The notes under the pieces were generated by a model. That model searched no databases and was not told where the DNA came from. It was given only the letters and a program-made list of their open reading frames with translations. Positions 10,461 through 62,491 of a stretch of 64,000 nucleotides of DNA are shown here, in pieces (position 1 is the stretch's first letter; the number at the start of each line of letters is the position of its first letter). The stretch is from Acidimicrobiia bacterium (lineage in GTDB: Bacteria > Actinomycetota > Acidimicrobiia > Acidimicrobiales > Poriferisodalaceae). Location of the stretch: assembly GCA_022827265.1 (NCBI GenBank), contig JAJDTF010000099.1, positions 71,105-135,104 of the forward strand, given 5' to 3'. Position numbers and translations under genes: made by a program.

Positions 10461-10470
10461 GCTTAAGGGC

Positions 10471-12173: not shown

Positions 12174-12282
12174 AGCACCTCAGATAGCCCACACCGACAC
12201 GCACGAGTGTGCATTCAGTCCATGCTGTCCGGCGCGGATCGGGAATGCCACTGGATTAATCGCAGCCATCCGTCCGCGGGCT

Positions 12283-12335
12283 GAGGAACTGTCGGCCGCC
12301 CTGGGAGAGTGACGGCAAGCGGCTCCGCTCGCCGC
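12283..12335. repeat. direct repeat copy 2 (displaced relic of the ftsK 3' end)
   Basis: It reads EELSAALGE-stop, versus EELSNALGE-stop in the live ftsK end. The hairpin carries one mismatch (ggcaagcg). Confidence 0.9.
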
Positions 12336-12339
12336 TGGC

Positions 12340-13578: not shown

Positions 13579-13703
13579 GGCGGCTCCCTTTGAGTCCCCG
13601 CGGGCGCGGTCCGTGGCGCTTCCCAGCGTAGGCGACGGGTTCTACGCTGCGCCGTAGTACTGAGCAGTCACGAGCGGCAGCTTCGCTGGCTCGAGGGGGG
13701 CAC

Positions 13704-14666
13704 ATGCCAGCACACACAGCACACGCAGGTCATGAGACGCACACGTCAGTCGAGGCGGCGCAGCTCAACGAGGTGGCCCCGGGCGTGTACAGCTACGTGC
13801 AGCCCGACGGCACGTGGTTCATCAACAACATGGGGTTCGTCGCCGGCTCCAGCGCCGTGGTGTCGATCGACACCACCTCCACGGAGCGCCGCAACCGGGC
13901 CTATCTCGACGCCATCGCCTCGGTGACGTCGAACCCGGTGAGGGTTGTGGTCAACACGCACCATCACGCCGATCACACCCACGGCAACTACCAGTTCGCC
14001 GACGCCACGATCATCTCTCACGCCAAGTGCCGTGACGTGATGGTGGCCGCCGGCATCCCCGACTACAGCGCAGTCTTTCCCGGCGTCGAGTGGGGCGACC
14101 TGCAATTCCGGGCGCCAGACGTGACCTTCGAGGGCTCGATGGTGCTGCACCTCGACGATCGTCGCATCGAGCTGTCGGACCTGGGCTTCGTGGCCCACAC
14201 CGACGGCGACATCGTGGCGTGGCTGCCGGACTGCCGGGTGCTGTTCTGCGGCGACCTGATCTTCCACGGCGGCACGCCGTTCGCGCTGTTCGGATCGGTC
14301 GCGGGGACCATCCGGGCCATGGACGTCATCGAGAGCTTCGGCGCAGAGGTGATCGTGCCGGGCCACGGTCCGCACTTCGGCGGCGACGACATCGCTCGCG
14401 TGCTCGACGAGCAGCGCTCCTACCTGCGCTTCGTGCAGGAAGCGGCCGCCGAAGGCCTCGCAGCAGGCAGGACGCCGCTCGAGCAGGCCCAGGCCACCGA
14501 TCTCGGCCCGCACGGCCGCTACACCGACCCTGAGCGTCTCGCCGGCAACCTGCACGTCGCCTACCGCGAGGCAGCCTCGGGCGGCTACGAATTCCCCGGC
14601 GTCCCCCAAGCGATCATGGACATGGTCGCCTACAACGGCGGCGCCCTGCCGCGCTGTCTGGCCTGA
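13704..14666 (+). CDS. MBL-fold metallo-hydrolase
   Basis: VNTHHHADHTHGN (HxHxDH), with downstream His/Asp ligand contexts (AHTDGD, VPGHG). SD-like gagggggg lies upstream of the ATG. Confidence 0.9.
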   Translation: MPAHTAHAGHETHTSVEAAQLNEVAPGVYSYVQPDGTWFINNMGFVAGSSAVVSIDTTSTERRNRAYLDAIASVTSNPVRVVVNTHHHADHTHGNYQFADATIISHAKCRDVMVAAGIPDYSAVFPGVEWGDLQFRAPDVTFEGSMVLHLDDRRIELSDLGFVAHTDGDIVAWLPDCRVLFCGDLIFHGGTPFALFGSVAGTIRAMDVIESFGAEVIVPGHGPHFGGDDIARVLDEQRSYLRFVQEAAAEGLAAGRTPLEQAQATDLGPHGRYTDPERLAGNLHVAYREAASGGYEFPGVPQAIMDMVAYNGGALPRCLA

Positions 14667-14790
14667 GTTCGGGCGCCGGCGGCAGGAGGCGACCCATCCG
14701 AGGCTGCGCCTTCAACGGCGGCGCCCTGCCGCGCTGCTTGGCGTAGCCATCGCCGGCGGCACGAGGCGAGAGCATCGGGGTTGATTCGGC
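14631..14790. repeat. about 80-bp tandem duplication of the MBL-hydrolase 3' end
   Basis: caacggcggcgccctgccgcgctg occurs at 14633 and 14713. cgccggcggca(g/c)gaggcga occurs at 14674 and 14751. The second copy encodes FNGGALPRCLA-stop versus the live YNGGALPRCLA-stop. Confidence 0.85.
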
Positions 14791-14801
14791 ATGCCGTTTC
14801 G

Positions 14802-14840
14802 TGGAACGGTTGACGAAAACTGGCTATAGTCGGCCAGTTT
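14802..14840 (+). promoter_or_regulatory. candidate promoter (-10 TATAGT at 14825-14830) embedded in a perfect inverted repeat aaactggc-N8-gccagttt (14817-14840); likely operator of the iol/ABC operon
   Basis: The IR arms are exact reverse complements and straddle the -10-like hexamer. ggagg (14844-14848) and the ATG at 14853 follow directly. Confidence 0.4.
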
Positions 14841-14852
14841 CTGGAGGCGTAC

Positions 14853-15746
14853 ATGACAAGATCACTGCGCGAGCGTCTGGCTGCGGCTCCGATCACGTGG
14901 GGCGTATGCGAGGTCCCGGGATGGGGACACCAGCTCAGCCCCGATGAAGTGCTGTCGGACATGGCCGCGCTGGGCTTCACGCACACGGAATTCGGCTCCG
15001 TGGGCTTCCTGCCGACCGATGGACACGAGCTCGCTGCACTGCTGCAGCGTTACGGATTGTCGCTGCTCGGGGGCTTCGTTGCTGTGGTGCTCCATGATCC
15101 CGAGCGTCTTGAGATCGAGATGGCGCGTGTCGCCGCGGTCGTCGCCCAGATGGCTTCAGCGAGCGGGATGTGGTTCGTCAGCTGCCCGGTGTTCGACCAT
15201 GACGACTGGCAGCGCCCCCAGCTTGACAGCGCCCAGTGGAGCCACGTGTTTCACGGGCTTGCGGCCATCGACGACATCGCCGCTCAATCAGGCATGAAGC
15301 ATGCATTCCACCCTCATGTGGGCTCGCTGATCCAGGACGATGTCGAGACGCGCGCGGTTCTCGAGCACACCGATACACAACTCGTGCTCGATACGGCACA
15401 CCTCACATTGGGCGGAACCGATCCCGCGGCGTTGGTTGGCAGCCACCGCGATCGCATTGGGCTGGTGCACCTGAAGGATGTCGATGCCGGGGTGGCGAAG
15501 CGGCTTCGCAACGGCGAGATCAGCCTGATGAGTGCCGTTCAGCTGGGGCTTTTCCCCCCCTTGGGGCGGGGCGCAGTTCCGTTGACTGACATCATCCGCT
15601 CGTTGGAGCAAGCACCGTCTGACCTCTGGTACGTGCTGGAGCAGGATGCGGCGCTCAGCGGTCCGGATACCGCCGATGTGGAACGGTTGCGGCGCGGCGT
15701 CGTCCAGAGCCTGCAGTTTGTGCAAGACTTCGACGCGGTGCGCTAG
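14853..15746 (+). CDS. sugar phosphate isomerase/epimerase (xylose-isomerase-like TIM barrel), inosose dehydratase IolE-like
   Basis: 297 aa. APITWGVCEVPGWG at the N-terminus and HPHVGS...LDTAHL...HLKD metal-site contexts. Genomic context with iolD and iolG. Confidence 0.75.
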   Translation: MTRSLRERLAAAPITWGVCEVPGWGHQLSPDEVLSDMAALGFTHTEFGSVGFLPTDGHELAALLQRYGLSLLGGFVAVVLHDPERLEIEMARVAAVVAQMASASGMWFVSCPVFDHDDWQRPQLDSAQWSHVFHGLAAIDDIAAQSGMKHAFHPHVGSLIQDDVETRAVLEHTDTQLVLDTAHLTLGGTDPAALVGSHRDRIGLVHLKDVDAGVAKRLRNGEISLMSAVQLGLFPPLGRGAVPLTDIIRSLEQAPSDLWYVLEQDAALSGPDTADVERLRRGVVQSLQFVQDFDAVR

Positions 15747-15808
15747 CACTCCAGGGGAAACGGGCGCTGGCGTTCGTGCCGTTCACGTCTTCAGGAGGAA
15801 GAACAGAC

Positions 15809-16843
15809 ATGAGGCGTATTACTCGACTGCTTGCACTGCTTGCGGCAATGACATTGTTCGCAGCAGCGTGCAGCGGCGACAGCTCCGACGAGACCACCGA
15901 CGAGCCGGACGCACCGGCGCCTGCGGAGACCACTGAGGCCGCATCGGATGCGGCCGAAGTCACGCTCACGCAGAGCGACTGCGACAAGACGTACCACGTG
16001 ATCACCCACGGCGACTCGGGAACCTTCTGGTCGGTCGTAGAGGTGGCAGTAGCGGATGCGTCCGATGCCATCGGCTGCGATGTCGTCTACTTCGGCGCCA
16101 ACAACGACGCGCAGGCGCAGTCACAGGCCATCGAGGGTGCGATCGCCGACGGTTCCGATGGCATCGCCATCTCACTGGCGGATCCCGCAGGTCTCGAAGC
16201 CGCCGCCCGTGCGGTCGTGGCAGCAGGCATCCCCCTGTACACGCTGAACTCCGGCGTCAACAACTACGAGGACCTCGGCGCCGTCACCCACATCGGTCAG
16301 ACCGAGATCGTGGCCGGCCAAGGCGCCGGAAAGCGGTTCAACGCCTTGGGCGCCACCCATGTGCTGTGCGCACGCCAGGAGCAGGCCAACATCGGTCTTG
16401 AGGAGCGCTGCCAGGGTCTCGCGGAGACATTCAACGGACAGGTGACTTCCGAATTCGTCGGCCTCGACGCGAACCCCGATGAGCAGGAGCAGACCATCGC
16501 CTCGATCCTCACTGCGGATTCCAGCATCGATGCGGTGCTGGGCGTCGGGCCGAACCTGCCGCTGCGGGCGCTCGACGCTGCCGAGTCGGCTGGGCGCACG
16601 CTGCACATCGGCGGCTTCGACCTGTCCTCGGACCTCATCTCTGCAATCGAAGCGGGCGACATCGCTTTCACCGTCGACCAGCAGCAGTACCTGCAGGGCT
16701 ACATCCCCGTGATCTTGATGCACCTGCAGGCAACGAACCAGAACACTGCCGGCGGCGGCCTGCCGATCCTGACCGGTCCAGGTTTCGTCACGCCTGACAA
16801 CGCTGCGGAGGTCGCAGCGCTCGTCAGCGCCGGCACGAGGTAG
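15809..16843 (+). CDS. sugar ABC transporter substrate-binding lipoprotein
   Basis: aggagg 10 nt upstream of the ATG. Lipobox LFAAAC-SGD. Periplasmic-binding-protein type I fold signature along its length. Confidence 0.9.
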   Translation: MRRITRLLALLAAMTLFAAACSGDSSDETTDEPDAPAPAETTEAASDAAEVTLTQSDCDKTYHVITHGDSGTFWSVVEVAVADASDAIGCDVVYFGANNDAQAQSQAIEGAIADGSDGIAISLADPAGLEAAARAVVAAGIPLYTLNSGVNNYEDLGAVTHIGQTEIVAGQGAGKRFNALGATHVLCARQEQANIGLEERCQGLAETFNGQVTSEFVGLDANPDEQEQTIASILTADSSIDAVLGVGPNLPLRALDAAESAGRTLHIGGFDLSSDLISAIEAGDIAFTVDQQQYLQGYIPVILMHLQATNQNTAGGGLPILTGPGFVTPDNAAEVAALVSAGTR

Positions 16844-16851
16844 CCCTCCCA

Positions 16852-19134
16852 ATGGCGGCCGCCACCGCCGACGGGGCCGACGAACGGCTCGCATATCGCG
16901 GGCCGATCCAACAGCTGCTCACCCGTCCTGAGATTGGTGCGCTGCTCGGCCTCGCCGGCGTGTGGCTGCTGTTCTGGCTGACATCTGAAGCATTCGGCAC
17001 CGCAGGGGGAACAGCCAACTTCCTCGACGTGGCGGCGCTGCTCGGCATCATGGCGGTGCCGGTGGCGCTGCTGATGATCGGCGGCGAGTTCGACCTGTCG
17101 TCGGGCGCCATGACAGGCGCCACCGCCGTCTTCGTCATCCTGATGAGCCGCGAGGTGGGCGAGCTGGGAGGCGCCGGGTTCAGCCTGCACCTCGCTGTGC
17201 CGCTGTCGCTGTGCTTCGCACTGGCGATCGGCTGGTTCAACGGCACGCTCGTCGAGCGCACGTCGCTGCCCAGTTTCATCGTCACGCTGGGCACGTTCTT
17301 CATCCTCATCGGCGCCAAGCTCGGCTTCGGCAAGCTGTTCACCAACAAGGTCATCGTCGAGGGGCTCGACGAGGCGCAGGGCTACGCGTTCTGGGACGAC
17401 ATCTTCGGTGCCGAGTGGATCCGCAACCAGCACATCTGGGACGGCCGCGACTGGGCATGGGCAGGGCTGCTCGTGCTCGCGGGCGTTGCCCTGCTGTTGG
17501 GGCTGCTGGAGATGAGCTACACCCGGCGGCCCGACCCGCCGTCATGGGCTGCGCCCGGCGCGTTCGCCGGGGCCGTCGCGGTGCCGCTGTTCGGCTTCGT
17601 GATGCTCCTGAGGTCCGACGGCACTGCCTCGAACTGGCTGTGGGGGGCTGTCATCGCCGCAGGAACCCTGGCGGGTGTCGCTAGCTGGTGCAGATCCCGC
17701 TACGAGCCGGTGCAGCGGCGCCGACCGGCGCCCGACAACCGCACGATGCGGATGATCGCCATCGGCGTCGGCGCTGTCGTGGTCGCCGTGGTGTTGGCAC
17801 TCGTCATGGATGCGACGAACACCGACCAGCTCGGCTTCCTCGGGGGCGGTCTCGGGCGTGCGGTATTCGCCATCGGCATCGCTGCTACCGGTGTGTTGGC
17901 CGCGCTGGCCGCGACCGGCCATGTCCGCTCGAGCGCACCGGTCATCGGCGTAGTCGTGGCGCTGTTGCCCGCGATCAGCTTCATGATGACCGTCCAGGCC
18001 GCCCGGGCGCTGCTGTTCGGCGGCCTCGCTGTGGCCGGCGTGGTGGCGCTGATGCTGGTGGCGGCGCGGACCGACCTCTCGCTATGGCTGCCGATGGCGA
18101 CCGCAGCCATCGTGGCTGTCGCCGCGTTCGTAGTGCAGGCCGAGTCCGAATCGCGCAAACTGCGCGTCGAGCTGTTCTCGGTGCTGCTCCTGATCGCGCT
18201 CGCGCTCGCGGCCACCGCAGCGGCCCGGGCTCTCGCACAGCGTCGCAGCACGGCGGTGCCCGTGCCGCAGATGGGGCTATGGCCGCGCGTCGCCATGGCG
18301 GTCGGCGGCGCTGCGGCCATCGTGTTCGCCGTGATCGAGCTGACCGACGGCGACGGCCTGCTCTACGCCCTGTCGACCGGAGCCGCCAAGGGCGGCGCGA
18401 TAGCGCTCGGCATCTTCGCCGTCGGCACGTTCTACCGGTTGCTGTTCAGTCGTGACGAAGGCATGGGCCGGCCTCTCGTGAGGGTCGGGCTGGCGGCTGC
18501 GGGCCTGGCGCTTGCGGTCAAGCTGATGTTCATCACTACCTTGGAGGAAGAGGCGACCCAGGCGGTGACCCGGTTCCGCGTCTCGGTGCTCTTCTACCTG
18601 CTGTTCGCCGCGATCGGCGCATGGGTCCTGGCCAAGACGCGCTTCGGCAGCTGGACCTTCGCCGTGGGCGGCAACAAGGACGCCGCCCGGTCGGTGGGCG
18701 TCCCGGCTGCCCGCACCAAGACGACGCTGTTCATGCTGGTGTCGGTCTGCGCCTGGGTCGCGGGCATGCTCATCGCCTTCCGCCTCAATTCGGTGCAGGC
18801 CAATGTCGGCGACGGCAACGAGTTCCGCTACATCATCGTGGCCGTCGTGGGCGGCAACCTGCTGACCGGCGGCTATGGCTCCGCTATCGGCGCGGCGATC
18901 GGAGCGCTCATCTGGGGGATGATCAGTCAGGGCATCGGTTTCGCGCGCTGGAATACCGACTGGCGCTTTCTCGTGCTCGGCGGGCTGTTGGTGGTGGCGG
19001 TGATCGTCAACAACTACGTACGCCAGCGAGCAGAGCGGTCGCAGGCGGCGCGCGGTGATCCCGACGATGACGGTCCGCCGGGCGACGATGCCGGCGCGGC
19101 CGACGAATCTGTCTCTGCAGGAGCTGAGCCATGA
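16852..19134 (+). CDS. ABC transporter permease (RbsC/FrcC type) with a very large internal hydrophobic insertion
   Basis: The N-terminal about 175 aa and the C-terminal about 190 aa ([23 protein letters not shown]...) look like a normal BPD_transp_2 permease. About 400 aa of extra TM helices lie between them. The stop overlaps the ATPase start (ATGA). Confidence 0.85.
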
Positions 19135-50843: not shown

Positions 50844-52862
50844 ATGACCAGCGATGCGGTGAACAACTACGCAGGCTTCATCTGGTCGGTGGCCGACCTT
50901 CTGCGTGGCGTGTACAAGCAGTCGGAGTATGGACGGGTGATCCTGCCGCTGACGGTGCTGCGTCGTCTCGACTGCGTGCTGGAGCCCACCAAGGCCGCTG
51001 TGCTGGAGGCTGATGAGACGCTGCCGGTGACGCTGCAGAACCGCGACCCGGTGTTGTACCAAGCATCAGGCCAGTCGTTCTACAACACGTCCCATCAAAC
51101 GTTCGCCACGCTGCTCAGCGACCACGACCACGTCGCCGGCCACCTGCGCAACTACATCGCCGGCTTCTCAGACTCGGCCCGCGACATCGTCGACAAGTTC
51201 AACTTCGAGGCTCAGATCGAGCGGCTCGACAGCCACAACCTGCTTTACCTGGTGGTGTCGAAGTTCGCCGAGATCGATCTGAGCCCCGATGCGGTGTCCA
51301 ACCTAGAGATGGGTTACCTCTACGAAGAGTTGATCCGCAAGTTCTCCGAGCTGTCGAACGAAACCGCAGGCGAGCACTTCACGCCCCGCGAGGTAATCCG
51401 CCTCATGGTGAACTTGCTGTTCCGTGAAGACGACGAACTGCTGACCCGCCGCGGCGTTGTGAAGACCCTGCTCGACCCGGCGTGCGGCACCGGCGGGATG
51501 CTGTCAATTGCCGAGGACTACTTGCGCGACCTCAACCCCGACGGCGAACTGCGAGTGTTCGGCCAGGAGCTGAACGCCGAGACCTACGCCACCTGCCGCG
51601 CCGACATGCTCATCAAGGGCCTCGAAGCCGAGAACATCCGCTTCGGCAACAGCTTCGACAACGACCAGCACGTCGGACAGCGGTTCGACTACCTGCTGGC
51701 CAACCCGCCGTTCGGGGTGGAGTGGAAGATGGTGGCCGATGCCGTGCGCGACGAGCATGCCGAGAGGGGTTTCGCCGGGCGCTTCGGCGCAGGGCTGCCC
51801 CGCATCAACGACGGCAGCTTCCTATTCCTGCAACACATGATCTCGAAGATGAAGCGCCCCGAAGAGGGCGGCGCCCGACTGGCGATCGTGTTCAACGGCT
51901 CCCCGCTGTTCACCGGAGGCGCCGGCTCAGGCGAATCGGAGATCCGCCGGTGGATCATCGAGAGCGACATGCTCGAGGCCGTCGTCGCCCTGCCCGACCA
52001 GCTGTTCTACAACACCGGCATCTCCACCTACTTCTGGGTGGTCACCAACCGCAAGGCGCCCCGACGGCGCGGCAAGGTACAGCTCATCGACGCCCGCGAG
52101 AGCTTCACCAAGATGCGCAAGAGCCTCGGCCAGAAGCGCAAGGAGATTGCCACCGAGCAGATCGACGACATCACCCGCCTCTACGGCGCCTTCGAGGAAG
52201 GCCCGCGCTCGAAGATCTTCCCCAACGAGTCCTTCGGGTTCCTGCGCATCACCGTGGAGCGCCCGCTGCAACTGCGTTGGGAGATCACCGAAGAAACGCT
52301 CGCAATTGTCGAGTCTCACAAGGCGCTGGCCAAGCTCGACCCCGAAGTCCGTGAAGCGTTGCTCGTCGCGCTGCGGGAACATCTCGACGAAGAGTTCGAA
52401 TCGGACGACACAGTGCAGGCGCTGGTGCGCGCGGCAGTGCTTCCAGCGACCGGCACGAAGGCCGCGGCGGTAGGCAAGGCCGTCGCGGGTGCACTCGCCA
52501 TCCGTGATCCATCCACACCAGTACAGGTCGACCGGCGGGACAACCCTAAGCCCGACCCGGAGCTTCGCGACCACGAGCACGTGCCGCTACCCCTGACCCC
52601 GGTCGCATACGAGTCCGACCCGAGCGCTCGCATCGACACTATCGAGTACCGCTCCGCAATCAAGCATTATCTGCACGGCGAAGTGGTCCCGTATGTCCCA
52701 GATGCTTGGCACGACGAAAACAAGACCAAAATCGGCTACGAGATTCCGCTCACCCGCTACTTCTATACCTACAACTCACCCCGCCCAATAGAAGAGATAG
52801 ATATAGAGATAATGGACCTTGAAGATGAGATTCGGACCCTACTGATTGAAGTTACCGGGTGA
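50844..52862 (+). CDS. hsdM: type I restriction-modification system methyltransferase subunit
   Basis: N-terminal HsdM_N (IWSVADLLRG), SAM motif LDPACGTGGML, catalytic LANPPFG. ggaggg precedes the ATG. Confidence 0.95.
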   Translation: MTSDAVNNYAGFIWSVADLLRGVYKQSEYGRVILPLTVLRRLDCVLEPTKAAVLEADETLPVTLQNRDPVLYQASGQSFYNTSHQTFATLLSDHDHVAGHLRNYIAGFSDSARDIVDKFNFEAQIERLDSHNLLYLVVSKFAEIDLSPDAVSNLEMGYLYEELIRKFSELSNETAGEHFTPREVIRLMVNLLFREDDELLTRRGVVKTLLDPACGTGGMLSIAEDYLRDLNPDGELRVFGQELNAETYATCRADMLIKGLEAENIRFGNSFDNDQHVGQRFDYLLANPPFGVEWKMVADAVRDEHAERGFAGRFGAGLPRINDGSFLFLQHMISKMKRPEEGGARLAIVFNGSPLFTGGAGSGESEIRRWIIESDMLEAVVALPDQLFYNTGISTYFWVVTNRKAPRRRGKVQLIDARESFTKMRKSLGQKRKEIATEQIDDITRLYGAFEEGPRSKIFPNESFGFLRITVERPLQLRWEITEETLAIVESHKALAKLDPEVREALLVALREHLDEEFESDDTVQALVRAAVLPATGTKAAAVGKAVAGALAIRDPSTPVQVDRRDNPKPDPELRDHEHVPLPLTPVAYESDPSARIDTIEYRSAIKHYLHGEVVPYVPDAWHDENKTKIGYEIPLTRYFYTYNSPRPIEEIDIEIMDLEDEIRTLLIEVTG

Positions 52863-54049
52863 ATCACAGCGCTTCGCATAGTGGCGTCCAATTGGGTCAT
52901 GTGTGCGATATCACGCTCGGGAAGATGCTTCAGTTATCGCCCAATGGGCCTCACGACTGTGAAGTCCCGTATTTGCGTTCTGGTTCCCTTGACTGCCTCG
53001 GACAAACTGATGCTTGGCGAACGATGTACTGCAGCCCGAATGAACTCAGGGCATACGGTCTGAAAGCGGGCGACCTCCTCGTGGCTGAAGGCGGTGATGT
53101 AGGTCGTGCCGAGTTTGTCCCTGAACTGCCGACAGATGCCATCTTTCAGAATTCCCTTCACCGAGTGCGCCTGCGCACTGAAGGCGACCTGCGATTCGTC
53201 CGTTACGCGCTCGAATCCATACGCCTCGCCGGGTGGTTAGATGTACTCTGCAACAAGACGACTTTTGGCCATTTGACTGTCGAAAAACTACGCCGGCTCC
53301 GCATACCGTGGCCATCACCCAGGGAGCAGACGGCAATGGTCGAGCATCTGCAGATCGAACAAGCTCGTATCGGCGCTTTGCTCGACAGCAAGCGCCGGGT
53401 AATGGAGCTACTTGGCGAACGACGTTTATTGCTCGCAGAGCAGGCTCTGAGGGACATGCTGCTGCAGGAACGAGTTGTGCCCTTGAAGCGCTTGGTTATG
53501 GAGAGCAATGAACGCCACGGCTCTGACCGACAGCCAACAATCTTGTCAGTATCGATTCATCAGGGTGTGGTTCCACGCAGCAGTGTTTCCGCTACTGAAT
53601 CTAGGGCGAGCGAATTTGCTAGCTACAAGACTTGCCGGCCCGGTGACATTGTCATCAACAGGATGCGAGCTTTCCAAGGCGGAGTGGGTGCCGTGCGCCA
53701 AGAGGGAGTCGTGAGTCCCGACTATACCGTGCTTAGAGTAGGTGATCAGGTTGCCAGCGATTACCTGCATTTTGCTATGCGCTCGCCTTGGTTCATATCC
53801 GAAATGACTCGGCGCGTGCGCGGGATCGGTGCCACCAATCAGGCACAAGTCCGGACACCCCGCATCAATTTCTCGGAGCTTGGCGAGATCCGTATCCCCG
53901 TTCCGTCCATGAGATCTCAGAAAGATCTGGTGTCTGACTTGGCTTCGAGGGAGGCGGCTATCGCTAATGTGCTCGATTGCCAAAGTAAGCAAGTGGCACT
54001 CTTGATGGAACGCTGGAGTGCACTTGTCACGACAACGATTACTAGCTGA
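52859..54049 (+). CDS. hsdS: type I restriction-modification system specificity subunit
   Basis: The GTG start overlaps the hsdM stop. Two TRD-like halves are separated by a conserved helical spacer (EQTAMVEHLQIEQARIGALLD...). Visibly AT-richer than the flanks. Confidence 0.9.
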   Translation: MNHSASHSGVQLGHVCDITLGKMLQLSPNGPHDCEVPYLRSGSLDCLGQTDAWRTMYCSPNELRAYGLKAGDLLVAEGGDVGRAEFVPELPTDAIFQNSLHRVRLRTEGDLRFVRYALESIRLAGWLDVLCNKTTFGHLTVEKLRRLRIPWPSPREQTAMVEHLQIEQARIGALLDSKRRVMELLGERRLLLAEQALRDMLLQERVVPLKRLVMESNERHGSDRQPTILSVSIHQGVVPRSSVSATESRASEFASYKTCRPGDIVINRMRAFQGGVGAVRQEGVVSPDYTVLRVGDQVASDYLHFAMRSPWFISEMTRRVRGIGATNQAQVRTPRINFSELGEIRIPVPSMRSQKDLVSDLASREAAIANVLDCQSKQVALLMERWSALVTTTITS

Positions 54050-54161
54050 ATGTTGCCGCGCGATATGTTCGAGTTTCGGGGATGGCAACCAATGGTAACC
54101 CCCGGGTGGTTCAATAGCCTGCTGCGGTGAATCCGCACAACCCAATCAGATTGCAGCGATA

Positions 54162-54518
54162 TCAGTACATCGTGACTAGGCGAACGTAATACCGAGCAAA
54201 GGTACCATGTTGCCAGAGATTACGTAACTCCGTCATCTGATACTCATGTTCGTCGATGAAGATGCAATTGCGCCGGTCAGCGCTCGATGGCATGACATCG
54301 TTCAACAAAACCGTGTTGCTGCTCCTCCACACTGTGAATCGCAGCTCCCTTGTGCGCGTGTCTATGCTCACATAACGTCGCATAAGGTCGCCCAGATTCG
54401 CATAGCCATACAACGCGGTTGAAGTATGGTTCGCAAAGATGATCAACCCATCTTCTTCTGTAGTGAACAAACGCTCGTGTTCTGACTTGGACCCGAAAGA
54501 CAACCTGAGCTTGCTCAT
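54162..54518 (-). CDS. hypothetical protein (118 aa)
   Basis: The ATG overlaps the stop of the upstream 224-aa ORF (ATGA). About 45% GC in the hand-counted line 54181-54240. No family recognised. Confidence 0.55.
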   Translation of the reverse strand: MSKLRLSFGSKSEHERLFTTEEDGLIIFANHTSTALYGYANLGDLMRRYVSIDTRTRELRFTVWRSSNTVLLNDVMPSSADRRNCIFIDEHEYQMTELRNLWQHGTFARYYVRLVTMY

Positions 54519-55189
54519 GGACCGCTCCTGATTCTATTGGGGATGGAAGCAAGGAAAGAGATACAGTCTCCTATTCGTCGTTTTAGCGCAGCAACACGGT
54601 ATTGCCTTCGGTCAAATCTACGAATGCCGAGCTGCAGGACATCCTGAATACTGCGATTGAGGCGCTGGACTTCATCAACCAGTTTGTTCGGCGGCTCAAG
54701 ACTGACTAAAGCATGTCTGTAGCCGCGCAAATCGATTGTGAAACTACGCGTGATGCGTATGTGAAGCCATCCTAAGAGCCAGAGTCGATGGCTGGTTGTA
54801 ACGACGTAAGGATCGGACTCGATCACGTCATGACCAGCTCCCACAAAGTACTCGACTTCTTGTCTAGCATGAAACTCTGGCAGCTTAACGTCGAGTGTCT
54901 GGTCGTTGGATTCCCGGTCGACGATAAGTGCTGGACATTCGATACGAAGTCCTCGTGCAGTTGAACGACCATCATTTCGCACGCGAAACGTAACCAACGT
55001 GCTGTCGAAGCTTGGGCGAACAATGATGTTGGGCCTGTTGGCGATGTACCAATATGTTGCCGGCAAGACAACGCCACTGAAGCCCAATATGCCGATCGTA
55101 AGCCAGCCCAAGAATGTTGTGGCCCAGAATGCAGTTGTGTCAACCGTCTCAGAAACAGATGAGAGTGTCTGAATCATGCCCCATGTCAC
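54515..55189 (-). CDS. hypothetical membrane-anchored protein (224 aa)
   Basis: N-terminal hydrophobic segment AFWATTFLGWLTIGILGFSGVVLPATYWYI, then a beta-rich soluble region. GTG at 55189 or ATG at 55177. No family recognised. Confidence 0.6.
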   Translation of the reverse strand: MTWGMIQTLSSVSETVDTTAFWATTFLGWLTIGILGFSGVVLPATYWYIANRPNIIVRPSFDSTLVTFRVRNDGRSTARGLRIECPALIVDRESNDQTLDVKLPEFHARQEVEYFVGAGHDVIESDPYVVTTSHRLWLLGWLHIRITRSFTIDLRGYRHALVSLEPPNKLVDEVQRLNRSIQDVLQLGIRRFDRRQYRVAALKRRIGDCISFLASIPNRIRSGP

Positions 55190-55526
55190 AGTGTGTCGCT
55201 CTGAATCGTGTGGGTTCTCGGCCGTTTACGAGTCCGGCTTAGTGATCTAGGTTGGGAAATTACTGGCGGATCAGCCAAATAGGCTCTGTAGGTTAGCGCT
55301 GAAATTGCCGATACGAGATCCAAAGGCGAGGTCCGGCCATTTTTTGCGAACTCAATCTGTTGATCTGGCCATCTCTCGGTGCATGAAGGGCCTGCTGCTG
55401 CCCGCTAGCAGGTGTTGACGAGCGGAAAGCGCTCGGCCCCCATCGACATGCTTGTGCGTGCCGCGTTAGGTAGCTGCGTGATGCATGGCCTGTTGAGACC
55501 GTAGATCTGCTTGGTAGGCAGAGGCG

Positions 55527-56825
55527 GTGAATGGGGCTGTCGACGAGGTTGCTTCCATCTGCCGCGGAGCGAGCTCGGTGTGGCTGGCGACTTGTGAGCT
55601 GCTGGAGCAGGCAGATTCGCTAGGTGTGCAGCGGGATCCATGGGCTGACGGCGATGCGCGCCAGCAGGCGGAGCGGGTTCGGGAACGTCTGGAGCGTGCC
55701 CTGAGTTGGCCGGCGGACGTGCCCCTGCACGTGGGCACAGCTGACGATGCCTCGGACGCTGGAGACGCTGTGGCGATGATGACGACGTCGTTGACCACGG
55801 GCGAGCTGTCGTACGTGGTCGCTTCGGTACTCGATGAGCAGTACTGGCGGAGCTTCACCCGGGACTGGTTGACGGAGCGGGGTCCTGTCTTCGACTTGCG
55901 TCCTGGGGACCGTTACCCAGTCGACGACATGCGCCTGAGGGGCGACGTGGGGTACAGCGCACGGCCTGAGCGACGGGGCCTGCGCGCGGGCGATCTGGCT
56001 CATGTTCGCCGCTTCCGCGTCGGCCGCATCCGCGTGATCGTTAACGGCAAGTATCCGCGCATCGTCGACCGGCTGGCTTCGTCGCTTCCCTTGGAGGCGG
56101 CGGTGCTGCTGCCGAATGAGTCATGGAGCGAACTCACCAAGCCACCAGGGCGCATAGGTCCGGTTGACTCGGAGGCGCAGCAGTCGGTTCTCTCTGAGAT
56201 GCTGCAGCAAGCCCGCGAGCGTGGCGTCGGCATGGTGGTGTTGCCCGAGCTGAGCGTGGACGGGAACATCGCCGAGTCCTTGGCGTCGGAATGGGAGCAG
56301 TCGACGGATTATCCGATGCTCTTCGCGGGGAGCGCGCACTTGCTCGATGGCGGTCGGCGTGTCAATCGGACGACAGTGCTCCTGCCAGGGGTGGGTGCTG
56401 CGTGGCACCACGACAAGACAGTCGCATTCGAGGACCGCGAGGGCAACCGTGAACCCATCGATCCGGGTGAACCGTGCATCACGCTCGGCTGCGGATATCA
56501 GGTACGCGTGGCCACGCTGATCTGCAAGGACGCCCTCGATGCCGACACTTACCGACTGGTTGCTGACCTCGGCGTACACGTGCTGGCAGTGCCGGCCATG
56601 TCAGACCGATTGGGGGACTTCGCTGCCGCCGCCAACGAGCTGATTGCTCAAGCACAAGGGGCCACAGTGGTTGCGAACAACCCGCGTCTGTGGAACGAGA
56701 GCGATGTGGAGCATGCGTTGCTCGGGCAGCCGGTGCGGGACGCCGAGCCGCGGGTGCGCGAGCACCGAAGCGAGGGTGCGCCGGATCTCGCCATTGCCCG
56801 CCTCGGCAGTGGATGGCTGCCGTGA
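55527..56825 (+). CDS. carbon-nitrogen hydrolase (nitrilase superfamily) domain protein with an unassigned N-terminal region
   Basis: Glu-Lys-Cys pattern in typical contexts: MVVLPELS (E241), WHHDKTVAF (K297), VATLICKDAL (C333). The first about 160-200 aa match no family I know. GTG start. Confidence 0.75.
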   Translation: MNGAVDEVASICRGASSVWLATCELLEQADSLGVQRDPWADGDARQQAERVRERLERALSWPADVPLHVGTADDASDAGDAVAMMTTSLTTGELSYVVASVLDEQYWRSFTRDWLTERGPVFDLRPGDRYPVDDMRLRGDVGYSARPERRGLRAGDLAHVRRFRVGRIRVIVNGKYPRIVDRLASSLPLEAAVLLPNESWSELTKPPGRIGPVDSEAQQSVLSEMLQQARERGVGMVVLPELSVDGNIAESLASEWEQSTDYPMLFAGSAHLLDGGRRVNRTTVLLPGVGAAWHHDKTVAFEDREGNREPIDPGEPCITLGCGYQVRVATLICKDALDADTYRLVADLGVHVLAVPAMSDRLGDFAAAANELIAQAQGATVVANNPRLWNESDVEHALLGQPVRDAEPRVREHRSEGAPDLAIARLGSGWLP

Positions 56826-56868
56826 TGACTGGCGGTGCCGAGGCAGCTAGTTGACATATGCTTGACGC

Positions 56869-58977
56869 ATGAGCGAAGCGGCGCTCAGCGCATTTCGGGA
56901 CAGCGTGCAGGTAGTGCTGCAGCGCAGCGCGGCGGGCGTCGACACCGACGCAGTGCAGGCTGGTGTCGACGAAGCCGTCGTCAGCGGTCGCGCTCTGCTA
57001 GTCGACTCGGCCATCCAGGAGGTCACAGCTGCAGCGGCGGAGTTGGACAGCGCCGTTCGGATCCTGCGCCGCCGCGGGGTAGCTGCCGAGGCGCTGGTGG
57101 CGCTCGGTGATGAGTTCGACGCATCACTGCTCGTCGCGCTCACGGCAGAGGCGCGGCGAGATGCCCGCGAATTTGCCCACAGCATCGGCGAGCGCATCTT
57201 GGACGCGGTGCGGGTGCAGCCGGCGTCCCCCAGCGAGCTGGCCGACCGGCTCGGCGTCGAGATCAGCCAGGTCAGCAGGGCCGCTCGGGGGTTGCGAGAC
57301 TCCGGCGAACTCGCCGTGGATCAGGTGCCCGGCGATGGTCGCCGAAGGCTGTACCGAGCTGTGCACCACGAAGCTGGGGCGAGACGTCGCCAAGGCTGGC
57401 GAGCTTTTGTGGAGCGGCTATCGGCGCTGCGCGCCGACGACGTGAGCAGTGACTTGCTGCCGGGGCGCGCAGGTGACGACCTCTCTCGGCAGGGGATGGA
57501 CACCGTCTGTGCGGCGTTCCGGCAGGATCTCGAATGGAGCCGCTACGAACCGACGCCTGTGTACGAGGTGGATATTCCCAAGACGAGCGGCGGAGTGCGT
57601 CCTGCCGCGGCGCTGCGGTTGGCTGACCGGCTGGCGTATGCCGCACTGGTCGAACGCTGTCGGGCCGAGATCGAGGCCAGCCTGACCTCTCGCCGGGCCG
57701 TGCTGTGGCCGAGGGGGTTCAAGAGCGACAAGCAATGGGTGCAGTTGGAGGGGTTCGTCAGCGAGAGCGCTGAGACGCATGTGCTGTCCCTCGACATTCA
57801 ATCGTTCTACGACTCGATTCGGCACGATGTGCTCGCCGAAGCGTTGGAGCGAGCGGGATGCGACCGTGCTGTGGTCGTCGCCCTGCAGGAGTGGCTCGGC
57901 GAAATCACCTGTGGCCGCAAGCGGGGCCTGCCCCAAGGACTTGCCGCGTCCGACCCGCTCGCCACTTTGGTGTTGGCACCGCTCGATCAGGCGTTGGCCG
58001 CGACTGGGGCCCGCTACGTGCGCCACGGCGACGACCTGAGAATCCTTGGCACCTATGACGAAGTCGAGGACGCAGAGCGACTGGCGCGAGCGCAGCTGAG
58101 GACACTGGAACTGACGGTCAATGACGACAAGACACGAGTGCTCTGTCACGACACCTACATGGACCGTCGCACGGAGGTCGACAGCGCTGTTCGCCAGTAC
58201 CTCGCAGCACCGGACCGCGTCGAGCGCAGCGCGGCCGTGATCACTCTGCTCGACGCGCTGGGTGCCGAAGAGGAATTGTCGTGGAGCTGGTACCACGACA
58301 CGCTCAGAGTCCAGGAAGTCTTGTCGTCTGTGGGCTCGACGCTGCAGCCGAGCGACACCGAGGCTCTGATGTACGTACTGCAGGAAGTAGCCGAGGCAGA
58401 GGAGACTTCCGCGCGATTCCACCAGCGATGGGCCGCCCGCCGTCGGAGGCAGCCCGAGACGTTCCTGATGCAAGCGGGGCTTTCATTGCTCGCAGCTGCC
58501 GGCGATGCGGCCCCCGCTGAGGAGTTCAAGGCATCGGTGGTTGCGCGGCCCGAGTACGCCGATTTCCTGTCCACCTACGTCGAAGAAACTGCGCCGACGA
58601 ACCCGGCCGCCGTTGCGGGGCTGCTGCAGCGCATCGAGGAGACCGGGATCACTTACGACGCGCAATGGCTGCGCCTGTATTCGGTACTCGGTGATGCGGG
58701 CGCGACCGGGGCATTCGACGACCTCGCGCAGATTCATACGGCCTCCACCGAACAGGGCTGGATGCGGCGCCTGCCAGCCGCCCGCTTCTTGGCAAGCCGA
58801 GGCCGGCTCGATACTGCGTATCTGCCGGAAATTGTCGAGAACGCGCCTGAAGCCCTGCGCGATGACGTCCTGCAAATCGTGAAGCACTCGTCGCCACTTC
58901 ATTCCAAGCAATCGGTCCACAAACTCATCCGCAAAGAGGGCGCGACGGCTGCCGCTCTGATTGCAGCCACAGCATGA
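56869..58977 (+). CDS. reverse transcriptase, UG/Abi-like (wHTH - RT - helical-repeat C-terminus)
   Basis: RT motifs: IPKTSGGVRP, LSLDIQSFYDSI, GLPQGLAASDPLA, YVRHGDDLRI (D388-D389 at 58030-58035), LTVNDDKT. The C-terminal about 270 aa are helical. The N-terminal wHTH-like segment is aa 105-165. Confidence 0.9.
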   Translation: MSEAALSAFRDSVQVVLQRSAAGVDTDAVQAGVDEAVVSGRALLVDSAIQEVTAAAAELDSAVRILRRRGVAAEALVALGDEFDASLLVALTAEARRDAREFAHSIGERILDAVRVQPASPSELADRLGVEISQVSRAARGLRDSGELAVDQVPGDGRRRLYRAVHHEAGARRRQGWRAFVERLSALRADDVSSDLLPGRAGDDLSRQGMDTVCAAFRQDLEWSRYEPTPVYEVDIPKTSGGVRPAAALRLADRLAYAALVERCRAEIEASLTSRRAVLWPRGFKSDKQWVQLEGFVSESAETHVLSLDIQSFYDSIRHDVLAEALERAGCDRAVVVALQEWLGEITCGRKRGLPQGLAASDPLATLVLAPLDQALAATGARYVRHGDDLRILGTYDEVEDAERLARAQLRTLELTVNDDKTRVLCHDTYMDRRTEVDSAVRQYLAAPDRVERSAAVITLLDALGAEEELSWSWYHDTLRVQEVLSSVGSTLQPSDTEALMYVLQEVAEAEETSARFHQRWAARRRRQPETFLMQAGLSLLAAAGDAAPAEEFKASVVARPEYADFLSTYVEETAPTNPAAVAGLLQRIEETGITYDAQWLRLYSVLGDAGATGAFDDLAQIHTASTEQGWMRRLPAARFLASRGRLDTAYLPEIVENAPEALRDDVLQIVKHSSPLHSKQSVHKLIRKEGATAAALIAATA

Positions 58978-59008
58978 TGCTGACGTCAGAACGGAAGAGG
59001 CTGTCAGC

Positions 59009-62000
59009 ATGAGTTCTGCCACAGAGGCCGCGTTCGAGGCGCATATTGCCGACTGGTTGGTGGCACATGGTGGTTATCTGCGGGTCAAGATCGGCAATGC
59101 GGCAGACGAGCCGCAGGACTTCGATGCTGCGGCCGGGGTCGATACGGCTGATCTATTCGAGTTCATCGGAAAGACACAGGGTGCTGATTGGGAACGCTTG
59201 GTCACGACTGCCTACGGCGGCGACCGTGACAAGGCGCAGACCGGATTCGCGCTGCGGTTGGCGGCCGAGTTGGACAAGCGGGGCACCGTTGACGTGTTGC
59301 GGCGGGGTGTGGTGGATCGCAACGTCACGATCCAGCTCGCCTACTTTCGGCCTGCTCATGGCTTGACGCCCGAGTTGGCTGAGCGCTACGACGCGAACGT
59401 GCTGTCGGTCACCCGGCAGTTGCCCTTCGAACCGGGCAGCAACCAGACCGTCGATCTGGGCCTGTTCGTGAACGGCGTTCCCGTGGCCACGGCTGAGCTC
59501 AAGAACCCGCTCACGGGTCAAGGCGTCGAGGATGCCGTCGCTCAGTACCGCAAGCGTCCGCAGGGGAACCGAACCTTGGGTCGGCTCGGCATGGTGCATT
59601 TCGCCGTTGATCCGTTCTCGGTGGCGATGACCACCCGGCTGGCCGGAGCGAGCACTCGGTTCCTGCCATTCAACCAAGGTCATGAACTCGGCAAGGGCAA
59701 CCCTCCGAACGCCAACGGGCACAGCACCTCGTACCTGTGGGAGCAGGTGTGGCACCGTGACGCCTGGCTGGACATCTTGGGCCGCTTCATTCATGTCGAC
59801 AAGCCGTCGAAGGGTTCCAAGGCTCGTCCCGAGGTCATCTTTCCGAGGTTCCACCAGTGGGATGCCGTGCGGCGACTCGAGGCCGACGCCCGGCAGCACG
59901 GGCCGGGTCGCAGCTACCTGGTGCAGCACTCTGCGGGTTCGGGCAAGTCCAACTCGATCGCATGGCTGGCGCACCGGCTGTCCTCGCTGCATGCCGCAGA
60001 CGACGGCAGGGTCTTCGACAAGGTCGTAGTGATCACCGACCGGCTCGTGCTTGACCGCCAACTGCAAGACACGATCAGCCAATTCGAACATGCAGTGGGC
60101 GTGGTGCAGCGCATCGAGGAGTCCTCCGCGCAGCTCGCTGAGGCGTTGGCTGGCGAGCAGGCGCGCATCATCGTCACGACGCTGCAGAAGTTCCCGCACG
60201 TCTTCGACAAGATCGGATCGCTGCCCGAACGCAGCTATGCGGTCATCGTCGATGAGGCCCACTCGTCACAGACCGGCGAGGCCGCCAAGGAACTGCGGCG
60301 AGCGCTTGGCTCGGCCGAGCCTGAGATCGACGACGGCGCAGACGTGGAGCCCGGCGAGGCCGAGGTGCTGCTGGCCGAGGCCGTGGCGGCGCGGGGACCA
60401 CAGCCCAATCTGTCGTTCTTCGCGTTCACCGCGACCCCCAAGGGCCGAACCTTGGAGCTCTTCGGCGAGCCCGACGACAACGGCAAGCATCAGCCGTTCC
60501 ATCTGTACCCGATGCGCCAAGCCATCGAAGAGGGTTTCATCATGGACGTGCTGGCCGGGTACACGACCTACACGCAGTACTCCCATCTGGAAAAGGCGAT
60601 CCTCGAGGATCCCTCCTATGAGACCGGCAAGGCCCGCAGCGCGCTGGCCCGGTTCGTCACTCTGCACCCCGACAACCTGGCGCAGAAGGCCGAGATCGTC
60701 GTGGAGCATTTCCGCTCGAAGATCGCCCGCCAAGTCGGGAAAAAGGCGAAGGCGATGGTGGTGTGCTCGTCGAGACCCCATGCGGTGCGGATGTGGGAGG
60801 CGCTGCGCGGCTACGCAGCGAACAACGGCTACGAGCTCGGGGTGCTGGTGGCGTTCTCGGGCGAGGTCGACGGGCTGACAGAGACGAAGGCGAACGGCTT
60901 CGGCGAGTCGCAGACCGCGGCGCAGTTCGACACCGACCAGTGGCAGATCATGGTGGTGGCGGAGAAGTTCCAAACCGGGTTCGACCAGCCGAAACTGGCC
61001 GCCATGTACGTCGACAAGACGCTGACGGGGCTGGCCGCTGTGCAGACGCTGTCGAGGCTCAACCGCATCCATCCCGACAAGTCGGGAACCTTCGTCGTGG
61101 ACTTCGTGAACGACGCCGATGAGATCGGCGAGGCGTTCGCGGTGTACCACGGCAAGACTGTCGCGCCGCCGACCGACCCGAACCTGCTGTTCGACACCCG
61201 GCACGACCTCGACGGATTCGGCGTGCTCGACACGGGCGAGATGCAGAGGGCCGCTGCGCTGCTGCTGAGCGAGAACGCACACGCTCAGGTGCATGCTGCG
61301 CTTCAGCCGGCGGTTGAACGTTTCGGCGGGCTGTCCGACGAGGATCAGGAAGCCTTTCGGGATGCGCTCGGGCGATTCGTGCGCGTCTATGGCTTCCTGT
61401 CGCTCGTGGTGCCGTTCCGCAACCCTGAGCTCGAAAGGGACTGCCTGTTTTGCCGTGCGCTGGCCGCGATCATCCGAGATTCTTCGGCAGGCGAGACCAT
61501 CAACCTGGGCTCGGAGGTGGAGCTGACCCACCTGCGGCACGAACTGGCCTTCGAAGGACCGATCGAACTGCCCGGCGGCGAAGCCGAGGTGACGACCATC
61601 TACTCCGGAACCGGTCCGATGGTGGACCCCGAAGAGGAACGCCTGTCGGAGATCATCGCCCGCATGAATGAGCGCTTCGGCACCACTTGGACCGACGAGG
61701 ACCGCTTGGTGTTCGAGGCAGCCGCCAGCGACCTGATCGCCGACGTTCACGTGCAGAACCAGGCCGCCAGCAACGACGAGGCCACATTCCGTGACCACGT
61801 GTTCCCCGACCGGTACGAGAAGGCGTTGCTGGCACGAATCGACCGCAACAGCGGACTGATCTACGAGTACCTCGACGACGAGAACCTGCAAGCGGCGGTG
61901 CGCGACATCTATGCCGTGGAAGTCCATCGGCGTGCCACGGTGGCTCGCCAGCGAACCTGTCCCATCGGCGAACTGCTCGGCGCTGACCGGGAGTCGCAGT

Positions 62001-62491
62001 TCTTGGAGTACAGGTCCACATTGCGCTGGGACATCCGTGAACAGCGCAAGGGCGGCCACCCTGAGGATGCAGCGATCAAGACCATCGCCGGGTTCGCAAA
62101 CTCGGCCGTCGGCGGCACGCTGCTGGTGGGCATTGCCGACGACGGCACGGTGCTCGGCCTAGAGGATGACTTCGCCACGTTCTCCAAGCGAGGCGAACGT
62201 GGCGACCACGACCTGTGGGGGCAACACCTCGACAACCTGATCCGCAACCGCCTCGGGGACTCTGTGCTGCCGCTGCTGGCGACGGAGTTCCACGTGATCA
62301 ACGGCAACCACGTTGCCCGAGTCAGCATCGACCCATCGGGCTTCCCGATCTACGAACGCAAGGGCGACAGCCAGGTTTTCTGGCTCCGCACCCCCACCTC
62401 CACCGTCGAGGTCCGCGACGCCGAAGAACGCGACCGCATCATCGCCCGCCGCTGGCCCCCAGCACCCCAGGCAACGGCTATCCGTTCGTAG
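59009..62491 (+). CDS. hsdR: type I restriction endonuclease subunit R fused to a C-terminal AlbA_2 (Schlafen-like) domain
   Basis: Nuclease DLGLFVNGVPVATAELKN; helicase motifs HSAGSGKS, VIVDEAHSSQ, FAFTATP, QTGFDQP. C-terminal ESQFLEYRS...IKTIAGFANSAVGGTLLVGIADDGTVLGL. The ATG at 59009 with an upstream gagg is preferred over the TTG at 58961. Confidence 0.9.
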   Translation: MSSATEAAFEAHIADWLVAHGGYLRVKIGNAADEPQDFDAAAGVDTADLFEFIGKTQGADWERLVTTAYGGDRDKAQTGFALRLAAELDKRGTVDVLRRGVVDRNVTIQLAYFRPAHGLTPELAERYDANVLSVTRQLPFEPGSNQTVDLGLFVNGVPVATAELKNPLTGQGVEDAVAQYRKRPQGNRTLGRLGMVHFAVDPFSVAMTTRLAGASTRFLPFNQGHELGKGNPPNANGHSTSYLWEQVWHRDAWLDILGRFIHVDKPSKGSKARPEVIFPRFHQWDAVRRLEADARQHGPGRSYLVQHSAGSGKSNSIAWLAHRLSSLHAADDGRVFDKVVVITDRLVLDRQLQDTISQFEHAVGVVQRIEESSAQLAEALAGEQARIIVTTLQKFPHVFDKIGSLPERSYAVIVDEAHSSQTGEAAKELRRALGSAEPEIDDGADVEPGEAEVLLAEAVAARGPQPNLSFFAFTATPKGRTLELFGEPDDNGKHQPFHLYPMRQAIEEGFIMDVLAGYTTYTQYSHLEKAILEDPSYETGKARSALARFVTLHPDNLAQKAEIVVEHFRSKIARQVGKKAKAMVVCSSRPHAVRMWEALRGYAANNGYELGVLVAFSGEVDGLTETKANGFGESQTAAQFDTDQWQIMVVAEKFQTGFDQPKLAAMYVDKTLTGLAAVQTLSRLNRIHPDKSGTFVVDFVNDADEIGEAFAVYHGKTVAPPTDPNLLFDTRHDLDGFGVLDTGEMQRAAALLLSENAHAQVHAALQPAVERFGGLSDEDQEAFRDALGRFVRVYGFLSLVVPFRNPELERDCLFCRALAAIIRDSSAGETINLGSEVELTHLRHELAFEGPIELPGGEAEVTTIYSGTGPMVDPEEERLSEIIARMNERFGTTWTDEDRLVFEAAASDLIADVHVQNQAASNDEATFRDHVFPDRYEKALLARIDRNSGLIYEYLDDENLQAAVRDIYAVEVHRRATVARQRTCPIGELLGADRESQFLEYRSTLRWDIREQRKGGHPEDAAIKTIAGFANSAVGGTLLVGIADDGTVLGLEDDFATFSKRGERGDHDLWGQHLDNLIRNRLGDSVLPLLATEFHVINGNHVARVSIDPSGFPIYERKGDSQVFWLRTPTSTVEVRDAEERDRIIARRWPPAPQATAIRS

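Follow-up and report, generated by a model that had tools for sequence, protein, structure and literature searches.

Several described bacterial defence modules act through a membrane effector, among them RexAB, Cap15 of CBASS, PycTM of Pycsar and the transmembrane (TM) form of ThsA in type II Thoeris. In this study we analysed a stretch of 64,000 nucleotides (nt), hereafter the window, from an Acidimicrobiia bacterium of the family Poriferisodalaceae (GenBank assembly GCA_022827265.1, contig JAJDTF010000099.1, positions 71,105 to 135,104 of the forward strand), and in it a two-gene cassette at 54162-55189 that lies antisense within a type I restriction-modification (R-M) locus. The two genes, which we call A and B, encode the proteins P0001 and P0002. 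The pair is foreign to the genome of the window, it is extremely rare, and it is found repeatedly beside type I R-M genes or beside other defence or mobile genes. It is best explained as an autonomous, horizontally mobile two-gene operon of an undescribed family pair, and it is a reasonable candidate for a new anti-phage module.

A precedent for a gene housed by an R-M system is prrC, which is embedded in the EcoprrI type Ic R-M locus and is silenced by that locus (PMC1484252, PMC2610378). The pair resembles PrrC and RloC in being an accessory unit inside or beside hsd genes, in being linked to R-M in some genomes only, as rloC is, and in being a plausible second line of defence. It differs from them in that it has no ABC-ATPase N-domain, no anticodon-nuclease C-domain and no sequence similarity, and in that it consists of two genes, one of them for a membrane-anchored protein, which in the window are antisense to hsdMS. 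With RexAB, Cap15, PycTM, the TM-type ThsA and Rst_2TM_1TM_TIR, the last of which is listed in 10.1101/2024.10.26.620412, the pair shares a small membrane protein and a cytoplasmic component in a defence island; the layout of protein A, a TM helix plus a beta-rich domain, is like that of Cap15, and some relatives of the pair carry a ThsB-like TIR gene directly downstream. However, the PADLOC models of these modules match neither protein, no ligand-binding domain could be identified, and protein A has one TM helix and not two to four. Unlike CBASS and Pycsar, from which Cap15 and PycTM come, the pair has no CD-NTase or cyclase gene at any of its loci, its neighbours in the window being hsdS and a nitrilase-like gene; a separate PycTM-like gene is found 3.6 kb from the pair at locus L021 only. 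Unlike Thoeris, P0001 and P0002 have no SIR2/SLOG or Macro domain in Pfam or PADLOC, and there is no ThsB TIR gene in the operon of the window.

A conserved gene pair of foreign base composition

The cassette and its two edges are laid out as follows (aa, amino acids; ORF, open reading frame).

54515-55189, minus strand: gene A (P0001), 224 aa, GTG start, single-pass membrane protein, from its ORF and translation
54162-54518, minus strand: gene B (P0002), 118 aa, ATG start, soluble and probably all-beta protein, from its ORF and translation
54515-54518, minus strand: ATGA overlap of the gene A stop and the gene B start (translational coupling); the plus strand reads TCAT
54050-54161: convergent spacer of 112 nt from one stop codon (hsdS) to the other (gene B), the downstream edge of the cassette
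55190-55526: divergent intergenic region of 337 nt, common to the cassette and the nitrilase-like gene, with no ORF

The first-pass annotation, a reading of the sequence by a model without database searches, had described two coupled ORFs of 224 and 118 aa placed antisense between hsdS and a reverse transcriptase (RT) module, the first with an N-terminal membrane anchor and the second soluble. When these points were checked all of them held: both ORFs and the ATGA overlap are in the sequence, the cassette runs antisense to its neighbours, hsdS (52859-54049) on one side and the nitrilase-like/RT pair (55527-58977) on the other, protein A has one hydrophobic segment that is kept in 15 of 15 full-length members of its family, and protein B has none. 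The GTG start of gene A at 55189 is supported by a homologue of protein A (82% identical, locus L007) that has an ATG at the homologous codon; an automatic gene call of 220 aa (P0008) begins instead at Met5 of protein A.

Genes A and B are real genes and they are always paired. A set of 12 non-redundant family loci was formed by the window together with the loci that were fetched (L001-L008, L019-L022, L040 and L041), of which the L003 locus has further copies from other samples (L009-L016). In 12 of 12 loci a gene B homologue of 118-137 aa comes directly after gene A, although the gene caller had missed it at L022 and L041, and in 11 of 12 the stop codon of A and the start codon of B overlap, the remaining locus, L022, having a gap of 23 nt. 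The two frames are conserved at 23-82% amino-acid identity over these loci, the ratio of nonsynonymous to synonymous substitution rates (dN/dS) is 0.13-0.19 for gene A and 0.07-0.27 for gene B, so that both genes are under purifying selection, and the pairwise identities of A and of B are correlated (Mantel r 0.92, permutation p 2e-4). Because selection, constant pairing and co-divergence all agree, the cassette is a conserved two-gene unit. The first-pass annotation had made its reading depend on conservation of the ORFs, and on this point it was borne out. That the two frames are chance ORFs in an AT-rich spacer is therefore scarcely credible: high-GC genomes do yield many long spurious ORFs, and promoter or terminator consensus sequences were not detected, but the region is low in G+C, where long spurious ORFs are rare, and the identities over 12 loci and the dN/dS values of 0.07-0.27 refute it.

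The family is very small. A word-index search found 5 clusters related to A and 1 related to B, to which a profile of B added 3, and when a HMMER profile of A was run against 1.84 billion representative proteins there were only 18 matches at E<=1e-3, 14 of them at E<=1e-10. The gene A homologues are P0009-P0013 and P0018-P0029, and the wider family alignments hold 18 sequences for A and 11 for B. In the genus of the window genome 2 of 31 species genomes have a strong match to A, with one distant member in addition, and among 401 genomes sampled across the class there was one strong match and one marginal hit. When public genome contigs were scanned the pair was found only in Candidatus Poriferisodalis multihospitum, which belongs to the same genus as the window genome by the genus label of the genome carrying that locus; a literature search for Poriferisodalis found no mention of it. 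A pattern scan of metagenome contigs found no pair, and tblastn found no relatives in 72,556 plasmids or in 50,697 phage records. All carriers are uncultured, and they are mostly sponge-associated Acidimicrobiia-like genomes.

The cassette has 50.5% G+C compared with 67.1% for the genome (standard deviation 2.9% in 1028-nt windows), which is 5.7 standard deviations below the mean, and of the 14,197 overlapping 1028-nt windows of the 3.8-Mb assembly only 0.035% are as low. G+C at third codon positions (GC3) is 0.52 and 0.63 in the two cassette genes whereas in hsdM, hsdR, the RT and the nitrilase-like gene it is 0.75-0.83, and at 10 of the 10 pair loci compared the pair is below its flanks in G+C. 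The first-pass annotation had argued for foreign origin from two lines of sequence, of which the count for 8401-8460 (42/60 G+C) is right and that for 54181-54240 is 28/60 and not the 27/60 it gave. The claim itself is well supported, as the cassette is an extreme outlier in G+C, it is patchy in the genus and the class, and the same slot is filled by other cargo in a sister genome.

The promoter of the cassette is presumed to lie in 55190-55526, where the nitrilase-RT module may have its promoter as well; the region has neither a sigma-70-type consensus nor an Rfam match. A search of 54050-54161 for terminator-like hairpins was negative, and so were scans of the cassette for promoter and terminator consensus sequences and for Rfam matches. 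Repeats to mark an insertion, direct or inverted, were not found in the flanks of the cassette.

Neighbours of the pair and its slot in the R-M locus

The genes around the cassette in the window are all on the opposite strand to it.

50844-52862, plus strand: hsdM (Pfam N6_Mtase, HsdM_N)
52859-54049, plus strand: hsdS (Pfam Methylase_S)
55527-56825, plus strand: nitrilase-like gene
56869-58977, plus strand: UG22-type RT (PADLOC RT_UG22, 3e-63)
58961-62491, plus strand: hsdR with a C-terminal SLFN/AlbA_2 domain (Pfam HSDR_N, ResIII, T1R_D3, SLFN_AlbA_2)

A survey of the neighbourhoods of homologues, which the first-pass annotation had proposed, found R-M, defence and mobile-element genes recurrently beside the pair. 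Type I R-M genes adjoin it in 4 of 10 informative loci, in three lineages directly and in the fourth at a distance of one insertion sequence (IS). In the window, where the pair lies between hsdS and hsdR, and at L020, hsdS is convergent with gene B, the proteins being only 32% and 27% identical between these two loci; at L019 hsdR is directly upstream of the pair on the same strand; and at L003/L009 the order is hsdS-hsdR-IS481-pair-TIR. This is the kind of adjacency that prrC has. The genomes of the genus have about 5 hsdS genes per 3.8 Mb, and by a rough estimate a random gene has a chance of well below 1% of being beside hsdS, so adjacency at 4 of 10 loci is far above chance; on the same rough estimate the excess holds even when the clustering of genes in defence islands is allowed for. 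In addition, a distant member of the A family in genome G024 (225 aa, with the TM/beta-sandwich layout) comes directly after hsdR-hsdS, where it is paired with an unrelated 314-aa gene. That stretch (L038, G024:C1:1509000-1527000, 5738-16720) holds an EcoEI-type hsdR, hsdS, the 225-aa member and the 314-aa unknown, and on the opposite strand a 575-aa unknown, a 647-aa HATPase_c_3 (MORC-like) protein and a C5 DNA methylase.

At the other loci the neighbours are dGTPase and a ZorE-like HNH gene (L001), a ThsB-like TIR and a DUF4062/PIN-TPR giant (L002), ATPase_2, nSTAND, PycTM-like and DUF4062/PIN-TPR genes (L021), KAP NTPase, DUF7380 and Abi_C genes (L022), and IS21 and a NaeI fragment (L041). 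At L022 (5416-15110) two inverted IS copies, each of a 109-aa and a 350-aa rve ORF, bracket a block of about 7 kb with the pair; this block, which also holds a 379-aa membrane-like protein and the Abi_C protein, is like a composite transposon and carries defence cargo. The 379-aa protein, for which no Pfam hit is on record, is encoded at L022 9078-10217 and L002 7487-8626, both on the minus strand, the two copies being 68% identical, and a 35% homologue is found in the window genome at G000 C144:5967-7079, on a contig that also has hsdS. As a third gene of the system it was rejected, being common to L002 and L022 only, and small ORFs upstream of the pair at L021, L041 and L008 were rejected likewise since they are mutually unrelated, so that no conserved third gene was found.

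A ThsB-like TIR gene is found 135 nt downstream of the pair only in the L002 and L003/L009 lineages, which are related. L001, a close relative, lacks it, as does the window, and no match to the L002 TIR protein was found by tblastn anywhere in the window genome. Among the L009-L016 copies, in which the pair does not change, the TIR is of 228 aa in some samples and is cut to 124 aa in others; it thus appears to be decaying or polymorphic within the Ca. Poriferisodalis population. Because it is missing from L001 and the window and truncated beside an intact pair, we regard the TIR gene as an optional add-on.

These data bear on whether the pair is a toxin-antitoxin (TA) or addiction pair, in which one protein, most plausibly A, would be toxic and the other would neutralise it, and which would stabilise the island or the mobile DNA with no direct role against phage. 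Like a type II TA system the pair consists of two short overlapping genes, co-inherited at 12 of 12 loci, in mobile DNA of low G+C and patchy distribution; at L022 it lies between inverted IS copies and at L003 beside IS481. We nevertheless consider this unlikely, since neither protein has a helix-turn-helix, ribbon-helix-helix, AbrB or other DNA-binding antitoxin domain or a known toxin domain (Pfam, NCBIfam, PADLOC), the upstream gene encodes a 224-aa membrane protein with a folded domain, which is unlike the typical small membrane toxins, and nothing related was found in the plasmid and phage records.

The slot in which the cassette lies was compared with that of a sister genome, G017, where hsdR, the RT and the nitrilase-like gene are arranged as in the window and are 89%, 81% and 76% identical. 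Between the nitrilase gene and hsdS, G017 has no pair and instead has about 6 kb of other antisense cargo (L034, G017:C1:3114000-3132000, 9442-17922), which includes a 688-aa protein with a 5-hydroxymethyldeoxyuridine (5-hmdU) DNA kinase helical domain (E 1e-95), an ACPS-like protein of 433 aa, an XRE helix-turn-helix and Peptidase_M78/chagasin-like pair, a dCTP-deaminase-like protein of 251 aa and an IS (rve). This cargo may be a DNA-hypermodification or defence block. As G017 carries other cargo at the same place, the slot between hsdS and the nitrilase-RT genes is a swap site, of which the cassette is one interchangeable cargo. The hsdS gene of the window (52859-54049) is itself low in G+C (55.5%, GC3 0.59) compared with hsdM and hsdR, and Pfam scores only the first of its target-recognition domains. 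The G017 hsdS at the same position is only 46% identical to it, which suggests swapping of specificity subunits. The window genome has a second pair of a nitrilase-like gene and a UG22-type RT on contig C160 of G000 (L039, 1616-5028), which are 57% and 62% identical in amino acids to the window copies and have no cassette.

The pair might instead be an accessory of its neighbours, either a PrrC-like guard that is latent under the R-M system and is fired by anti-restriction proteins of phages, or a tether or regulator for the R-M or the nitrilase-RT genes. Besides the prrC precedent, this agrees with the R-M genes that adjoin the pair in the window, L019 and L020, with those one IS away in L003, and with the distant member that follows hsdS in G024. 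It also agrees with L007, a short contig in which the cassette, the full intergenic region and roughly 90 nt at the start of the nitrilase gene are kept at 79.5% nucleotide identity to window 54123-55615; 55190-55526 aligns over its full length at about the identity of the coding parts, and since the alignment runs into the nitrilase gene this close relative has the same upstream junction, while at the other end homology stops near 54123, about 40 nt beyond the gene B stop. We hold this explanation to be quite improbable all the same. The available flanks of L001, L021, L022 and L041 are free of type I R-M genes, and in the window and L020 the pair and the hsd genes are on opposite strands. 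Between the adjacent R-M systems HsdR is only 35-45% identical, which argues that no specific R-M partner is conserved. Six other nitrilase-RT loci are without the pair, five of them with their flanks checked (G017, G026, G003, G011 and the second copy in the window genome) and the sixth, G019, which is known only from a short contig, by the whole-genome survey of the genus.

Predicted features of the two proteins

The first-pass annotation had recognised no family for either protein, and this was confirmed when they were searched against Pfam, PADLOC, NCBIfam and PHROGs, where P0001 and P0002 had no match at E<=0.1 to 1. When all members of the two families were scanned only sub-threshold matches to TRAP_beta, PAS_8 and the like were found (Pfam, NCBIfam, PADLOC), and in sequence-profile searches of the PDB the best E values were 0.037 and 1.4, which are no match. 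The predicted structures, for which a search had been proposed, were built with AlphaFold2 from 6-sequence alignments, and Foldseek found no match in the PDB at E<=1e-3 for these low-confidence models of A and B. By sequence, then, A and B are two protein families without known relatives, and the pair is not a member of any named system. The parts of protein A are as follows, all encoded on the minus strand.

55055-55114: TM helix, residues 26-45, with the only hydrophobic 19-mer at residues 26-44 (Kyte-Doolittle 1.8)
55028-55054: juxtamembrane motif YWYIANRPN, residues 46-54, the most conserved segment
54725-55027: predicted cytoplasmic seven-strand beta-sandwich, residues about 55-155, with an N-x-G-R-x-x-A motif
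54548-54694: C-terminal amphipathic, highly basic helix, residues about 166-214 (169-214 in the AlphaFold2 model)

The 17-49 residues N-terminal to the TM segment are acidic or neutral and are poorly conserved among members, the 15 residues after it carry a charge of +1 to +3, and the rest of protein A is basic (isoelectric point 9.7). By the positive-inside rule, these flanking charges point to an N-out/C-in topology with the bulk of the protein in the cytoplasm. In the family the juxtamembrane motif reads YWYxAN[RK]PN, with W47, N51, P53 and N54 invariant in 18 sequences, and residues 46-56 have a mean majority frequency of 0.81 compared with about 0.5 for the rest of the protein. Within the TM helix Thr31 and Leu42 are at least 90% conserved and there is also a Ser-Gly pair; N72 and G74 are invariant in the 18 sequences, and there is a conserved D-R pair at residues 193-194. 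The C-terminal helix has a hydrophobic moment of 0.6-0.74 over residues 166-190, and residues 165-224 have an isoelectric point of 11.4. Conservation that peaks next to the membrane, conserved positions in the TM helix and a strongly amphipathic C-terminal helix together suggest that A acts at the membrane.

AlphaFold2 places seven strands in residues 55-152 of protein A at a predicted local distance difference test (pLDDT) score of only 58. For this model Foldseek ranks TRAP-beta and other immunoglobulin (Ig)-like sandwiches first, none of them significantly, and 5 of 18 members of the family match Pfam TRAP_beta weakly (E 0.03). The N-x-G-[RK]-x-x-A strand motif of the family is a likeness to the CARDB/TRAP-beta Ig folds, but all scores are sub-threshold, the model is of low confidence, and the domain has a predicted cytoplasmic location, with a long basic helix after it. 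The beta-sandwich is thus a tentative assignment of fold class only.

Protein B, which has no hydrophobic segment and an all-beta AlphaFold2 model of very low confidence (pLDDT 50), is soluble and probably all-beta. In its family L4, T19, G24, L25 and F61 are invariant and F8, G9, D23, L59, T62, V63, R109 and L114 nearly so, and no catalytic-looking motif was found in the family alignments. The idea that B is a duplicate of the beta-domain of A was rejected as hhalign shows no relationship between the two families.

When the model of protein A was compared with a viral library, the best Foldseek matches were to uncharacterised phage membrane or beta proteins only, at TM-scores of 0.3-0.4 that are not interpretable. 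These matches are in keeping with the pair being non-immune cargo of mobile elements or of the envelope, such as a superinfection or entry-exclusion factor, or a membrane protein for the niche of a sponge symbiont that gathers in variable islands, and so is the restriction of the family to a few marine or sponge-associated Acidimicrobiia-like assemblies. We do not think such a role likely, however, because prophage, conjugation and integrase genes are not consistently nearby, there are no sequence relatives in phages or plasmids, the neighbours are overwhelmingly defence genes, and the predicted topology leaves nearly all of protein A in the cytoplasm.

Candidate function and its significance

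The first-pass annotation had speculated that the cassette, placed among type I R-M genes, is a defence accessory or a TA module, with an abortive-infection effector and a regulator. As for context, this agrees with R-M genes at 4 of 10 loci and defence or mobile genes at the others; the assignment of an effector and a regulator is one that we infer from that context. The best reading in our judgement, a tentative one that is quite possible though short of probable, is that the pair is a mobile, restriction-linked module of the abortive-infection type, made up of a membrane effector and a sensor or regulator that is soluble. In such a module the sensor or regulator would be B, bound to the cytoplasmic part of A; a cue from the phage would make A oligomerise by way of its C-terminal helix and its conserved TM helix, and the oligomer would perturb the membrane and thereby stop the infection; the ThsB-like TIR gene would be a dispensable addition in some lineages. 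The more specific proposal is that this is a new anti-phage system in which the single-pass protein A, gated by the soluble beta-protein B, kills or arrests the infected cell at the membrane and backs up type I R-M, possibly by sensing the loss of restriction, and is wired to a TIR protein in some lineages. This we hold to be doubtful.

Several points weigh against a defence role of this kind. The system models of PADLOC-DB 2.0 give zero families for P0001 and P0002 at E<=0.1, and there is no recognisable enzymatic, pore-forming or nucleotide-binding motif in A or B. A single TM helix is a weak basis for a pore, and the low pLDDT of both models makes all statements on fold tentative. Four loci have no type I R-M gene in their available flanks, and because the carriers are mostly sponge-associated Acidimicrobiia-like genomes the evidence from context comes from few lineages, several of them in one genus. 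A location in a defence island is typical also of toxin-antitoxin and other selfish cargo. As the features by which the named systems are recognised were not found in it, we class the pair as new in its families but as belonging to a general kind that is known, the accessory gene pairs of defence islands.

The extreme rarity of the family, with some 18 representative relatives that all come from uncultured organisms, limits the impact of the finding. Should the pair prove to be a defence module, it would add two protein families without relatives to the membrane-acting immune effectors, and it would be a second unit, unrelated to PrrC, that has lodged repeatedly in type I R-M operons, so that the idea of a layer that backs up restriction would become testable in a new system. 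For the sponge-symbiont genus in which it is found, the slot between hsdS and the nitrilase-RT-hsdR block is a site at which defence cargo is swapped.

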